A DNA stretch of 64,000 bases from an uncultured Hormoscilla sp. GTDB taxonomy: Bacteria > Cyanobacteriota > Cyanobacteriia > Cyanobacteriales > Desertifilaceae. Below, in pieces: positions 87-5,385 of the stretch (within the stretch, counting starts at the first letter, position 1; every line of letters begins with the position of its first letter). Location: the NCBI GenBank assembly GCA_963921275.4, contig OZ001293.3, positions 1,824,001-1,888,000 of the forward strand. The letters run 5' to 3'. Under the pieces are notes generated by a model. The model was not told the origin of the DNA. It ran no database searches and saw only the letters and a list, made by a program, of their open reading frames with translations. The position numbers and the translations under genes were made by a program.

Positions 87-2217
87 GTGAGGGAAGTAGA
101 ATCGCGAAGAGTACCAGTCATCATGTCGGAGTTCCCGAAAAACATGGCTGACGATCCCGTTATGGATACAGAACTCCGCTCAGGTGGGAGGCGTTCTGAG
201 ATGACCAAACCATCTTCGGCAGAAATGAGTTCGCGCCCAAATAACATTAATAATCTAGACCGTAGCGCCCGTACAATTGATAGAGAACCTATTCTATTTA
301 TCCCAGACATGAGGGATTCAGATTACTTATTGAGGCAGGACAGAAGTATTAGCGATCGCATCCGTCCGAGGCAGCAGCATGAGAGAGGAGATCGACATCG
401 ACAAGGTGCTGGTTTGGGGATAACCAGACTACCAGAAATTATCGACGGCCAGATTAATATTCCTAAATTAGACCGTCACCCCCGTCAAATAAATAAACAA
501 CCTATCCCATTTTATGCGGAATCACTGCCATTTGAGGCAGTTGGTGACTTCATTAACCGCAATGCTAACGATGGAACAGTAGAATTAACGGCAATTCTCA
601 TAATCTTACCTAAATTATATTTCTTGGTCGAGGCGAACGAGATTGGTAATGTCGGCGAAATATTCAATCAATCTAATAGAGAAACTGTCCCATTTACTGC
701 CGATCGAGCGATATCATTGCCAAGACTTAACTTGAGCAACAGTCAGGTTAACAACGAGACAGTTTCTCTTCAATGATAATCAGGATTGACGGTTTCTAGG
801 ATACCCGAAATACTTGAATATGGAAGTGAAAATATTGTATTTTATAATGGCAGCAAAGTGACAAGCGTTGATAATCTAGACAATAGTTACCGTCAATTTA
901 ATGGAGAATTTGTCCCCTTTATCGTCAGAGGCTACCCCGCCACAGAAGCAACTGATCGGGCGTCTCTTAGGAATTCGGGCAAGCTGGCATCCAAAATTGA
1001 AGTGCGAGTGAGTGCTACAGAAATAAGCAATAGACTGAACCTCAGCAATCCTGAGATGGGAATAATGGAAATAGAAGGACTCTGGAGTAACCAATTCATG
1101 AATTACTTTGGAGAAAAGATTCCGGAAATAAAAACATATACCAGTATTAAAGAGATGCTGGGTAAAATAGAAAAGCAAACAGGACAAAAGCCAGCAATTG
1201 TTTATGCGATAGCCTCACCATAACAATTAACAATGATGGCAGTTTTTCCAGGCAAAACTATAGTCAAAAGCGTCCCAGTCAGAAAGAACTGCTCAGAACA
1301 GCAAGAGAATTTCGCACCTTGGTTAGCAATCCTCGGATCGAATTCTACAAGCAATCAGCCCATAAACTCTATAATTGGCTAATAAAACCCATAGAAAACC
1401 AGCTGCAAGCCGAAGGAATCAACACCCTAGTGTTCTCCCTAGATGCAGGATTACGCTCATTACCCTTAGCAGCTTTACATGATGGGCAAAAGTTTCTAGT
1501 AGAAAAATATAGCATCTCCCTGATACCATCAGTGAGTTTAACCGATGCTAGCTATAGCGGACTAGAAAATACCCAACTATTGGCAATGGGAGCATCAGAA
1601 TTTACCAACCAACAAACCCTGCCAGCAGTGCCAGTAAAATTAGCAGCGATCGCCTCCATCTGGCAAGAAGACAAAACCTATTTCCTCAACCAAGAATTCA
1701 CTCTCCCTAATCTTAAGGCTCAGCGCCGCCAACATCAGATCGTACATTTAGCAACCCATGCCGACTTTCGCGATCGGGACTATTCCTTCATCCAGTTGTG
1801 GGACACCAAGCTAAAATTAGAGCAACTCAGGGAATTAAAATGGCACGAAAGCTCAACAGTAGAACTATTAGTATTAAGTGTTTGCCGTACAGCAATTGGA
1901 GATGAAGAGACAGAATTAGGCTTTGCCGGGTTAGCAGTACAAGCAGGAGTAAAATCAGTGCTAGCCAGTTTATGGCTAGTCAGCGATGCAGGCACCCTAG
2001 GTTAATGACAGAATTTTACCAGCATCTGCGTTCCACACTCATCAAAGCCACCGCCCTACAGCAGGCGCAAATAGCCATGATCGGAGGAGAAGTGAAGCCT
2101 GGGTTCCAAAAAGACACCTTGCCACCAGAACTGGCAAGGCGTCTCGGGAATGAAAACATAGATTTATCCCATCCATCTTACTGGGCAGAATTTACGCTGA
2201 TTGGCAGCCCTTGGTGA
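87..2217 (+). pseudogene. CHAT-domain (caspase-like) protein, fragmented; the 5' end probably lies before the window
   Basis: Consecutive ORFs 87-776, 786-1223, 1319-2005 and 1972-2217 carry CHAT motifs (LYNWLIKP, LPLAALHDG, IVHLATHA, LLVLSVCRTA, HPSYWAEFTLIGSPW) and are split by stops and frameshifts. Confidence 0.8.
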
Positions 2218-2328: not shown

Positions 2329-5300
2329 TTAACTATTATACAGGTAGTCATCATCGAGGTAGTCATCATCTAGGTCCTCATCATCTAGATCCTCATCATC
2401 TAGGTCCTCATCATCTAGATCCTCATCATCTAGGTCCTCATCATCTAGGTCCTCATCATCTAGGTCCTCATCATCCTGGCGAGCAGTCACAAAATTAACC
2501 AGATTCCGTCCCGGCACCACAATCACCTTTTCCACAGACCGATCGGCGATATAATGCTGAGCAATTTCCGAGTCGCGGGCTAATTGTCCCAGAGATTCTT
2601 GATCGGAGTCAGCGGGAACCTGAATAGTGCCCCGGGTTTTGCCATCAATTTGAATCACCAGGGTAATTTCTTCAGCCACTAGAGCAGCTGGATCCAGAAC
2701 AGGCCATCTTTGTTGATGTACCGAGCCAGTGTATCCGATCGCCTGCCACAAATCCTCAACGATATGGGGAGCAAAAGGAGCCAAAAGCAAAATCAAAGTT
2801 TTAATCCCTTCCGCATAAGAAGGAGATAATTTACACTTAGCGTCCGCCAGAGCATTAGACAGCTTCATCAGTTCAGAGATCGCAGTATTAAATTGGTAGC
2901 CACCCTGTAAATCTTTTGTGACCTCATCAATTGTCTTATGAACTGTCCGTCGCAAAACCTTAGCCTCAGGCACCACATCATCTAGCCAAACCAACACCCT
3001 TTTGAGCTGTTCGCGATTATTTGGGTGAGTTCCTGGCAGAGATAATTTTGCTTCCATTGCTGCCTTCACTTGAGGCACAGAATAGACCTTCACCCCACCT
3101 TTAAGAATAGAAGTTGGCAGTTTCCGCACCATCTCCTTAATCAAAGCCTCAGATAACCCCAAAGACCTCAATTGAGGTTGAGTCACCCGCTCAGTAGATT
3201 TTAGTTCTCCCTTCCGCTTCTGGACTTCATGAACCAAAGACTCCAGCAAATAGTCAGGAAAACCAAGAGTTTTCAAATGACTTCGGATCCATTCTTCCGT
3301 TTCCTCCTGGGACTCAGACAGTTCAGATCTCTCCCGATCGCGCAACTCCTTCAATTCTGCCACCAAACGCCAGACGCGATTCAGAAAGCGGAATTGACCT
3401 TCTACATCTGCATCATCCCACTCTAAATCTTTTTCCGGCGGAGCCTTAAAGAGGATAAACATGCGGGTAGTATCTGCACCATACTTATTAACCACCACCT
3501 CCGGTTCCACACCGTTATACTTGGACTTGGACATAGTCTTGTAGGAAAGTTCCAGGGGTTCTCCCGTATCCGCATCCTTAGGACGATCGGGATCTGAAGC
3601 ATCTACCTGATCGACAGGAATCCACTTTCCCGTTCTCGGGTTCTGGTAACTTAAACCCTGAACCATTCCCTGAGTTAACAGACGAGAGAATGGTTCGTCG
3701 AAATTGAGTAATCCCCGATCGCGCAGCACCTTAGTAAAGAACCGCGAGTAAAGCAAATGCAAAATCGCGTGTTCAATCCCGCCTACATACTGATCGACAG
3801 GCATCCAATCATTATTTTTGGTAGAGTCAAACACCTGCTCGTCATTTTTAGCATCAGGAAAGCGCAAGAAATACCACGACGAATCAACAAATGTATCCAT
3901 CGTATCTGTTTCCCGCTTTGCTGGAGAACCACAAGTAGGACAATCTACATTTACCCACTCTTGAAGTAGAGATAAAGGAGAACCGCCCTTACCCGTCAAC
4001 TGGATATCGATCGGCAATCTCACTGGCAAATCTGATTCTGGCACGGGCACTACACCACAGTTGGGGCAATGAATTGCCGGAATAGGCACGCCCCAGTAAC
4101 GTTGGCGAGAAATTAACCAATCCCTGAGCCGATAATTTACTTGCGCCTTACCAATCCCCCGTTTTTCCGCCAATTCAATCACTGCCTGTTTCCCAGCGGC
4201 AGAAGCCATCCCATTGAACTGACCAGAATTGACCATAAAACCCGGGTCCGTGAAAGCCGCCGACAACGGTTGAGGTTGCATGTCTCGTTCCGGCATGATT
4301 ACCACCTCGATCGGCAAATTATTTTCCGAGGCGAATTTAAAATCTCGGGTATCATGGGCTGGCACGCCCATCACCGCACCGGTCCCATACTCATATAACA
4401 CGTAATCAGCAATCCAGATGGGGATTTCCTCACCGCTAAAGGGATTAATCGCCTTGCCCCCGGTGGGGATACCCCGTTTCGGCTTATCCGTTGCCGTGCG
4501 ATCGATTTCTCCCAAGGAGGCCATTTCTGTCACGAAAGCTTCCACGGCCTCCAACTGGTCAGGACTGGTCACCGCCTGGGTGAGAGGATGTTCCGGCGCC
4601 AGGACAAGGTAAGTAGCCCCGTAAATCGTATCCGGACGAGTGGTGAACACCGTAACTTTCTGATTGGACCCCACCACTTCAAAAGACAGGGTTACCCCCA
4701 CCGATTTACCAATCCAGTTAGCCTGCATCAGCTTCACCCGCTCTGGCCAATCGGTCAATTTCTCCAAATCCTTGAGCAGTTGTTCGGCATAGTCAGTAAT
4801 TTTGAGGAACCACTGCCGCAACATTTTGCGCTCCACCTTAGCGCCAGAACGCCAGGATCGCCCCTCGCTATCCACCTGCTCGTTTGCCAACACTGTCCGA
4901 TCGATCGGATCCCAATTAACCGCCGCCTCCTTCTGGTAAGCCAGGCCCGCGTCTAAAAATTGCAAGAAAATCCACTGAGTCCACTTGTAATATTCCGGCG
5001 AACAGGTAGAAAGTTCGCAATTCCAATCGTAAGAAAGCCCTAAGCGCTGTAACTCCGACTTCATCTGAGCGATATTGGAATCAGTCCACTGGGCAGGATG
5101 GATGCCACGGGCGATCGCCGCATTTTCAGCCGGTAGCCCAAAGGCATCCCAACCCATTGGATGCAGTACCCGATCGCCTTGCATGCGACGCATCCTGGCA
5201 ATCACATCCGTAATCGTGTAGTTACGGACATGTCCCATGTGCAGATTCCCCGATGGATAGGGGAACATAGATAGGGCATAGAATTTGGGTATCTTGGTAT

Positions 5301-5385
5301 CCGTGTCCGTTTGGTATAAACCTTGTTGTAGCCAAGTTTTTTGCCACTTTTCCTCTATAGATGCTGGATTGTATTGAGATTCCAC
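2329..5385 (-). CDS. leuS: Leucine--tRNA ligase with an internal insertion and an acidic repeat tail
   Basis: [13 protein letters not shown] (HIGH) and TMSKS (KMSKS) motifs, CP1 editing domain ([12 protein letters not shown]), [10 protein letters not shown]. Confidence 0.97.
2341..2475 (-). repeat. Coding 15-nt tandem repeat x9, (DDEDL)7(DDDYL)2
   Basis: TAG(G/A)TCCTCATCATC units read directly at the 3' end of leuS. Confidence 0.95.

Follow-up and report, generated by a model that had tools for sequence, protein, structure and literature searches.

A predicted winged-helix module in the leucyl-tRNA synthetase of an uncultured Hormoscilla cyanobacterium, very probably captured from proteins of an HNH endonuclease cassette

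The 64,000-nt stretch of DNA analysed here, called the window throughout, belongs to an uncultured cyanobacterium, Hormoscilla sp. (contig OZ001293.3, positions 1,824,001 to 1,888,000), and carries leuS, the gene for leucyl-tRNA synthetase (LeuRS), in which an in-frame insert of 131 amino acids (aa) interrupts the anticodon-binding domain. Very probably, an essential gene has here acquired a foreign domain in frame, one whose source is a family of small proteins encoded in cassettes with an HNH endonuclease, which is found in other synthetase hosts as well, and which is kept under selection. The complete interpretation, in which the captured domain would also have an accessory role in nucleic-acid binding or tethering, is put forward more tentatively, as one that may well be right but on which we would not insist.

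The product of leuS scored 1176.8 bits against TIGR00396, the model for bacterial LeuRS (cut-off 548.4), contained all of the catalytic, editing and anticodon-binding domains (PF00133, PF13603 and PF08264), and matched the LeuRS of T. thermophilus (1h3n) with an expect value (E) of 5e-262. The alignment with 1h3n covers residues 4-681 and 811-965, two stretches that are separated by a linker of only 19 residues in the T. thermophilus enzyme. Likewise, the segment MSKS..FNTAI measures 104-109 aa in four insert-free cyanobacterial LeuRS versus 219 here, and the spacing from FLNRxW to LRRxxH is 26-36 aa in nine measured LeuRS versus 138 here. That further comparison drew on the 11 long-frame LeuRS found in a sample of 401 genomes of the class, 10 of which could be parsed and 9 measured; none of the 10 showed extra sequence at this loop, and no LeuRS bearing CAAD, the membrane-anchoring domain of other cyanobacterial synthetases discussed below, was among them. 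Since relatives have 19-36 residues at the same place, the net gain amounts to approximately 100-115 aa. The insert begins with AELKE and ends with DDVVPEA, the next residue being K (Table 1). A preliminary description of the window, made from the sequence alone, had placed a foreign domain at 2970..3350 and counted about 127 aa between the flanking segments; its location is confirmed at 2968-3360 on the reverse strand, and the long insertion is indeed there, but its exact length is 131 residues.

Table 1. Positions of leuS, of the boundaries and parts of its insert (window coordinates), and of the free-standing loci
Feature	Position	Strand	Basis or remark
leuS	2329..5385	-	1018 aa, GTG start; sole full-length leucyl-tRNA synthetase gene of the genome
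Left boundary: end of first anticodon-binding-domain helix, residues 666-675	3361..3390	-	1h3n alignment to residue 681; conserved in every LeuRS of the alignment
Whole insert, residues 676-806, 131 aa	2968..3360	-	Alignments to insert-free LeuRS
Right boundary: anticodon-binding domain resumes, residues 807-819	2929..2967	-	1h3n alignment restarts at 811; PF08264 = 810-928
Helical arm, residues 676-731: long helix, LGFP turn, second helix; N-terminal half acidic	3193..3360	-	AlphaFold2 block, predicted local distance difference test (pLDDT) 80-88
Core module, residues 732-806: beta1, helix-turn-helix, two-strand wing, two C-terminal helices	2968..3192	-	Standalone-only profile, AlphaFold2 core model
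Helix-turn-helix, residues 736-753, conserved L..G.S turn	3127..3180	-	AlphaFold2 core helices 5-10 and 15-22
Free-standing loci	L036-L051, e.g. L037 926..2250		Three-gene cassette in 11/13

The insert was present in all five genomes of the genus that were searched and in a protein cluster of 14 members. Over window positions 2700-3600, the contigs of four public sequencing runs, three of which are RNA libraries, showed no joints and no insertions or deletions; in three of the four a single contig covers the whole region ungapped and jointless (two of these are RNA libraries from different studies, in which DNA carry-over is possible), and the fourth, X19, gave partial pieces only. Neither flanking DNA repeats or target-site duplications nor a sharp break in base composition could be found at the insert. 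In one genome of the same genus (L015; G002:C2:2976319-2976705) the frame holding the insert is 713 aa long, versus 1016-1031 in the others, a difference that a frameshift in leuS or a break in its assembly might explain. A search of the Hormoscilla genome itself returned, besides the one full-length LeuRS, a 150-aa fragment elsewhere (L007 1510..1962; G000:C1:1209444-1209884); this open reading frame nearly repeats LeuRS residues 77 to ~220 and then diverges, and it is a duplicated piece of leuS, probably surviving as a pseudogene fragment.

The origin of the insert is indicated by its free-standing relatives. When 1.84 billion representatives were searched with HMMER, four matches were obtained at E≤1e-3, namely three free-standing proteins of 128-136 aa and a 996-aa protein (P0005) that matched the arm. 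Word-index searches that used an alignment as query recovered eight free-standing proteins of 126-142 aa, including 'hypothetical proteins' named from Spirulina sp. CS-785/01, Halothece sp. and Geitlerinema sp. P-1104, and the only longer proteins obtained in this way were LeuRS (three clusters) and one prolyl-tRNA synthetase (ProRS). Scanning 401 genomes of the phylum with a profile of the module gave matches in 16, two of which were discounted as chance (E ~9e-4, internal stop codons). Among the remaining 14 genomes the module is embedded in LeuRS in two (the present genome and G314, which belongs to a different family), embedded in ProRS in one, and free-standing in 12 (13 loci). When the profile was built from the 13 free-standing copies only, the LeuRS studied here was the single significant match among 84,991 six-frame genome segments (full E 1.5e-14), the matching domain spanning residues 732-803 (E 5.5e-12); that the core and the free-standing family are homologous is thereby firmly established. 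The foreign nature of the domain, as first proposed, is thus borne out, but not its proposed size of ~105 aa, given that the folded unit comprises approximately 72-75 aa, with a helical arm making up the other ~55 aa.

The free-standing proteins (126-150 aa) consist of the module at the N-terminus and a coiled-coil-like tail at the C-terminus; only the N-terminal module is embedded in the synthetases, that is, the coiled-coil tail has not been captured. At 11 of the 13 loci the gene forms part of a compact three-gene cluster that also encodes an HNH endonuclease (PF01844) of 120-157 aa. The gene order is third gene-module-HNH in eight loci and HNH-third gene-module in three, the two orders being cyclic permutations of each other. 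The third protein, which is small and has an N-terminal GWT.AD..RA motif, is homologous across both gene orders (E 2e-14 to 4e-8) and only marginally similar in three loci. No known anti-phage defence system could be recognized in the cassette by PADLOC: the HNH proteins matched generic HNH/PtuB-type models, the module proteins matched none, and the third protein gave stray matches only (E ~0.003). Nothing describing the insert or the cassette was found in the literature, as judged from titles and the opening parts of abstracts, and the three-gene HNH cassette is undescribed. One genome (G040; L022, L035) carries both a ProRS-embedded and a free-standing module; its free-standing gene is located downstream of a thiC-like gene and has no HNH neighbour.

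The module is not confined to LeuRS, nor to one family of cyanobacteria. A 967-aa LeuRS of another lineage (P0004) also carries the insert, and in the LeuRS of G314 the same loop bears the module but lacks the arm. In addition, the ProRS of one genus (g7, both of its two genomes) and that of a second (g30) contain the module as a clean insertion of 72-73 aa at DDYIxS|PKFLR, in the region of the Pfam editing domain, relative to the ProRS of the present genome and of G314. ProRS is encoded by one copy in each of five genomes checked. No embedded module could be detected in the nine genomes from other genera of the family to which the present genome belongs. At least two lineages have captured the module in LeuRS, at a loop of the anticodon-binding domain, and two genera have done so in ProRS, at a loop of the editing domain. 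A tree of 28 modules groups the six embedded copies inside one of two free-standing subfamilies, with weak support (83/17). The LeuRS copies form one clade in 2% of the bootstrap trees, so that they do not make up a single clade, and the G314 copy sits on a long branch. The tree may thus be read either as one capture followed by spread or as several independent captures.

Structure prediction divides the insert into two parts. The AlphaFold2 model of the whole insert (18-row alignment; pLDDT 83.4, predicted template modelling score (pTM) 0.72) has a helix at insert positions 2-27 that prolongs the helix of the enzyme, the LGFP turn and a second helix at positions 32-44, and thereafter a strand, a helix, a turn, a helix, two strands and two helices. 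A separate model of the core (77 aa, 8-row alignment; pLDDT 86.8, pTM 0.70) contained the same elements, with a strand at 2-4, helices at 5-10 and 15-22 and strands at 27-30 and 34-38, which is the predicted topology of a winged helix-turn-helix (HTH). In Foldseek searches of the PDB the best local matches were nearly all winged-HTH DNA binders, led by BldC (probability 0.91) and RacA (0.84; root-mean-square deviation (rmsd) 2.5 A over 51 columns), with CarH, MtaN, SoxR, TnrA and DdrC among the others. The top rows against BFVD were small phage proteins named excisionase, MerR-like, AlpA or HTH (probability up to 1.00, rmsd 1.5-1.6 A over 50-52 columns, E 0.025-0.3). The small winged-helix module suggested in the preliminary description is therefore supported by both models and by the Foldseek matches, but not by any match that is statistically significant.

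Sequence comparisons were less informative. The core had no significant match in Pfam, NCBIfam, PHROG or PDB sequences, and no HTH_17 or MerR match was obtained in Pfam scans at E≤10. The sole Pfam family matched repeatedly was DUF3173 (PF11372), by 4 of 18 modules at E≤1 (best E 2.2e-4); one such match scored 13.9 bits, below the gathering cut-off of 25, and the LeuRS module was not among the matched sequences. In a sequence-profile search of the PDB, the L..LG.S motif showed a weak, repeated similarity to the helix-hairpin-helix repeats of topoisomerase V (E 0.056), which offers an alternative reading of the two helices. The top cluster in the ESM Atlas was an unnamed cyanobacterial one (score 0.90), and the nearest named families, HTH_59, Exc and Phage_Cox, reached only 0.76-0.77 and can serve as leads only. 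We conclude that the core is likely an excisionase/MerR-type winged HTH extended by two helices and of no named family, as far as the models allow, and that, by its sequence relationships, it belongs to an undescribed domain family. The earlier proposal of a new appended domain thus holds as far as tested here.

The arm is of less certain derivation. The 996-aa acidic protein P0005 contains ten copies of a ~50-aa unit with CEEWISQVLNSIDYPETIFETFEHE that resembles part of the arm, at a summed E of 2e-16; its single repeats match weakly and are biased in composition. The internal echo noted at the outset does exist in the sequence, where it is in register with the HTH of the module, but it has no statistical support (4.7 bits, independent E 110), and the arm cannot be taken as a partial duplicate of that HTH. 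Derivation of the arm from the C-terminus of the cassette's upstream gene was likewise rejected, the LeuRS being absent among the 22 listed genome matches (E 1.2-23); the motif FGF.DPW.EAL of that C-terminus is similar to a segment of the arm.

The two parts of the insert have also evolved very differently. Compared with P0004, the enzyme body is 79% identical, the arm 36% (with no gaps), the core 76%, and the anticodon-binding and C-terminal part 68%. In comparisons within the genus, 1 and 0 nonsynonymous changes were counted in the core for 11 and 10 synonymous ones, which corresponds to ratios of nonsynonymous to synonymous substitution rates (dN/dS) of 0.03 and 0.00; the ratio is 0.30 against the most distant member of the genus. 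The corresponding values are 0.11-0.17 for the enzyme body and 0.35-1.7 for the arm, whose counts are small and whose length is kept. In the ProRS of the two g7 genomes the module has a dN/dS of 0.05, versus 0.04 and 0.09 for its flanks. To judge from these substitution ratios, the embedded module is under purifying selection as strong as that acting on the enzymes themselves (0.00-0.05 in close pairs). All embedded copies retain the hydrophobic core and the L..G.S turn, with L13, G17 and S19 found in 5 of 5 embedded and in 10-12 of 13 free-standing copies. The five basic columns of the free-standing proteins are kept in 1, 2, 5, 0 and 4 of the five embedded copies. The original recognition of DNA, probably sequence-specific, has likely been relaxed or retargeted, because several conserved basic positions have been lost in the embedded copies. 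Four of the five embedded modules nevertheless have an isoelectric point (pI) of 9.3-10.0.

How the insert might work can be pictured as follows. The 75-aa core, very probably captured from the N-terminal domain of the rare free-standing HNH-cassette proteins, would be held off the LeuRS body, according to the models, on a helical hairpin of about 55 residues. The module would take no part in catalysis and would instead supply an extra basic surface (pI 9.8). By binding a polyanion, which could be DNA or an RNA such as tRNA, that surface might tether or concentrate the enzyme, a putative function in which the module would be, by analogy, a soluble counterpart of the membrane-tethering CAAD domain.

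Several observations weigh against this interpretation. With regard to the fold, no structural match at E≤0.001 was obtained in the Foldseek searches of the PDB and BFVD, and an hhalign comparison of 18 modules with 21 MerR_1 (PF13411) domains of related genomes gave a probability of only 5.4% over 17 columns, out of register; because of these two results the fold class is likely rather than proven. With regard to binding, basic column 10 is kept in only 1/5 embedded copies, column 24 in 2/5, column 59 in 0/5 and Tyr21 in 2/5, and the module of the g7 ProRS is not basic at all (pI 6.5). The two host sites, that is, the loops of the anticodon-binding and of the editing domain, share no obvious contact with tRNA, and a specific tRNA role is disfavoured for that reason. 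Finally, neither a free-standing module nor a homologue of the third cassette protein was found in the present genome, so that no cognate partner is evident.

The strongest of the alternatives is that the insert is a tolerated passenger, that is, a functionless remnant of a mobile HNH cassette lodged in permissive loops, where selection would only keep it folded and soluble. Its sporadic distribution (LeuRS in 2 and ProRS in 1 of the 401 genomes of the phylum, and none of the nine genomes from other genera of the family), the location of the source gene beside an HNH nuclease in 11/13 loci, the loss of several family-conserved basic residues from embedded copies and the almost neutral evolution of the arm would all be expected of such a remnant. 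On the other hand, a mere spacer should drift as the arm does, yet the core has a dN/dS of 0.00-0.05 in close pairs of two host enzymes, equalling or beating the enzymes' own values; it is 76% identical between lineages that share only 68% identity in the anticodon-binding and C-terminal part; and it is retained in 5/5 genomes of the genus. Because the constraint is strong in two hosts, the passenger explanation is disfavoured, and we regard it as unlikely, albeit deserving of serious attention.

Another possibility is that the winged-helix surface has been retargeted to a protein, be it a partner, another synthetase or the module itself, and serves to recruit LeuRS or ProRS into a complex. 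Such docking would account for the partial loss of the DNA-type basic positions, and the family seems used to protein partners, its free-standing members having a coiled-coil tail and belonging to a three-protein cassette; a CAAD-bearing valyl-tRNA synthetase has, in addition, been reported to contact ATP synthase (PMC4893482). However, it is precisely the coiled-coil tail that was not captured, the genome lacks the cassette's other small protein, and no candidate partner could be identified, which leaves docking an unlikely explanation in our view. The module might instead contact tRNA(Leu) or tRNA(Pro) directly and in cis, lowering the Michaelis constant in the manner of RNA-binding domains appended to other synthetases, such as WHEP or Trbp111/EMAPII-like ones, as the basic character of 4/5 embedded copies, their location in tRNA-handling domains (anticodon-binding and editing) and the strong constraint would suggest. 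Yet the two host sites correspond to opposite tRNA ends, most LeuRS and ProRS function in the absence of the module, and the CAAD sites of class I enzymes, to which the present loop may or may not correspond, face away from the tRNA (PMC4893482); a cis-acting tRNA helper is accordingly judged improbable. Nothing in the present data separates either the docking or the tRNA-helper explanation from the preferred one, accessory polyanion binding or tethering.

A further conceivable scenario is homing at the level of a domain, in which the module would be a coding unit that propagates itself: the HNH enzyme of the cassette would cut conserved sites in essential genes such as leuS and proS, repair would copy the adjacent winged-HTH segment in frame into a permissive loop, and the embedded copy would be kept because it destroys the cut site and provides a tether to DNA or the nucleoid. 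This would explain why unrelated LeuRS lineages have one 72-aa unit in a common loop and why the ProRS of two genera have it in a single loop as well, but we consider the scenario very improbable. That the insert is a known element in disguise has practically no probability, since it is neither a CAAD anchor (the maximum 19-residue Kyte-Doolittle mean over residues 676-806 is 0.53, too low for two transmembrane segments, and no such family appears among the nine matched at E≤1 by the whole LeuRS or the four at E≤10 by the insert) nor an intein (no Hint or intein family was matched, and the ends given above lack intein junction residues), nor an intron (it is in frame and its divergence is mostly synonymous), nor an assembly artefact (it recurs in five genomes and a 14-member cluster, and the contigs of four runs are free of joints and indels); the initial statements that it has no transmembrane segment, is not CAAD and lacks intein ends were therefore correct.

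Among known systems, CAAD offers a close parallel. Cyanobacterial synthetases captured this domain from free-standing curt1 genes and are anchored by it to the thylakoids, and it has been seen only in class I, monomeric enzymes (PMC4893482), a LeuRS of Lyngbya sp. PCC 8106 being reported among its bearers. Like CAAD, as characterized there, the present module occurs sporadically across species, in enzymes that are sole copies and must stay active. Unlike CAAD, with its two transmembrane helices and thylakoid anchoring, it is soluble and winged-HTH-like; it also occurs in ProRS, a class II enzyme, whereas that report confines CAAD to class I; and the gene from which it derives belongs to an HNH endonuclease cassette. 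The proteins of the excisionase/AlpA/MerR type, such as Xis, TorI, BldC, RacA and pSK1 Par, resemble the core in the predicted beta-helix-turn-helix-beta-hairpin of about 50 residues and in the classic L..G.S turn, and they provide the best local structural matches in both the PDB and BFVD. They differ from it in that no sequence-profile link could be found, that the core has two extra C-terminal helices and that it is embedded in an enzyme, while those domains occur on their own or at the N-terminus of a regulator.

Phage small terminase subunits may pair with an HNH protein, as in HK97-type phages, or have a winged-HTH N-domain, as in lambda gpNu1. The free-standing relatives are reminiscent of both, with a winged-HTH-like N-terminal module and a coiled-coil tail encoded beside an HNH protein of 120-157 aa. 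Four of 18 module proteins matched phrog_141, 'terminase small subunit', with a best E of 0.012, and one at E 0.0048, similarities that are weak and not significant. Unlike a terminase region, the cassette comprises only three genes, and inspection of 20-kb and 10.8-kb regions around the cassettes revealed neither a large terminase or portal gene nor any further phage gene. Small non-catalytic modules appended to synthetases, such as WHEP, EMAPII/Trbp111-like domains and the B5 domain of phenylalanyl-tRNA synthetase, are RNA or DNA binders that alter the affinity for tRNA or confer moonlighting functions. These have different folds and origins and are terminal or long fixed in whole families; the present module, by contrast, is a recent, lineage-restricted internal insertion that still has living free-standing relatives.

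Some further features of the gene and its surroundings were noted. The C-terminus of the LeuRS (residues ~970-1018, window 2332-2478 on the reverse strand) is a poly-acidic tail, (DDEDL)x7 followed by DDDYL x2, which is encoded by a 15-nt tandem repeat in approximately eight copies; copy number and composition vary among strains (P0003, P0026, P0018), and the LeuRS of P0004 and G314 have no such tail. An acidic, nucleic-acid-like tail beside a basic inserted module may perhaps be no coincidence. Adjoining leuS is a CHAT-domain gene on the forward strand that is split across two overlapping frames (window 1319..2005 and 1972..2217), covering positions 2-238 and 240-289 of the CHAT profile; the split is a frameshift and marks either a pseudogene or a sequencing error. 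The closest named proteins come from metagenome-assembled genomes of Hormoscilla. In P0018 and members of its cluster the public annotation consists of a 263-265-aa 'class I tRNA ligase family protein' with a Met start inside the module and no full LeuRS, that is, automated gene calling appears to break at the insert in related metagenome-assembled genomes.

As far as can be told, the capture of a domain by cyanobacterial synthetases is in itself already known from CAAD, and what is new is the domain, its reach into class II and its origin from a cassette. If the interpretation is correct, this would be the second case, after CAAD, of cyanobacterial synthetases repeatedly capturing the domain of a small free-standing protein, and here the captured domain would be soluble, of a DNA-binding type, and would span the divide between class I and class II (LeuRS and ProRS). 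In practical terms, automated annotation appears to stumble on this gene in related genomes. The enzymes with and without the insert, and the free and embedded forms of the module, provide natural matched pairs for probing what an extra winged helix does to tRNA affinity, DNA tethering or regulation; G040, in which both forms coexist, is one such natural pair. Moreover, the insertions reveal surface loops of LeuRS and ProRS that accept a folded domain, which is useful for engineering.

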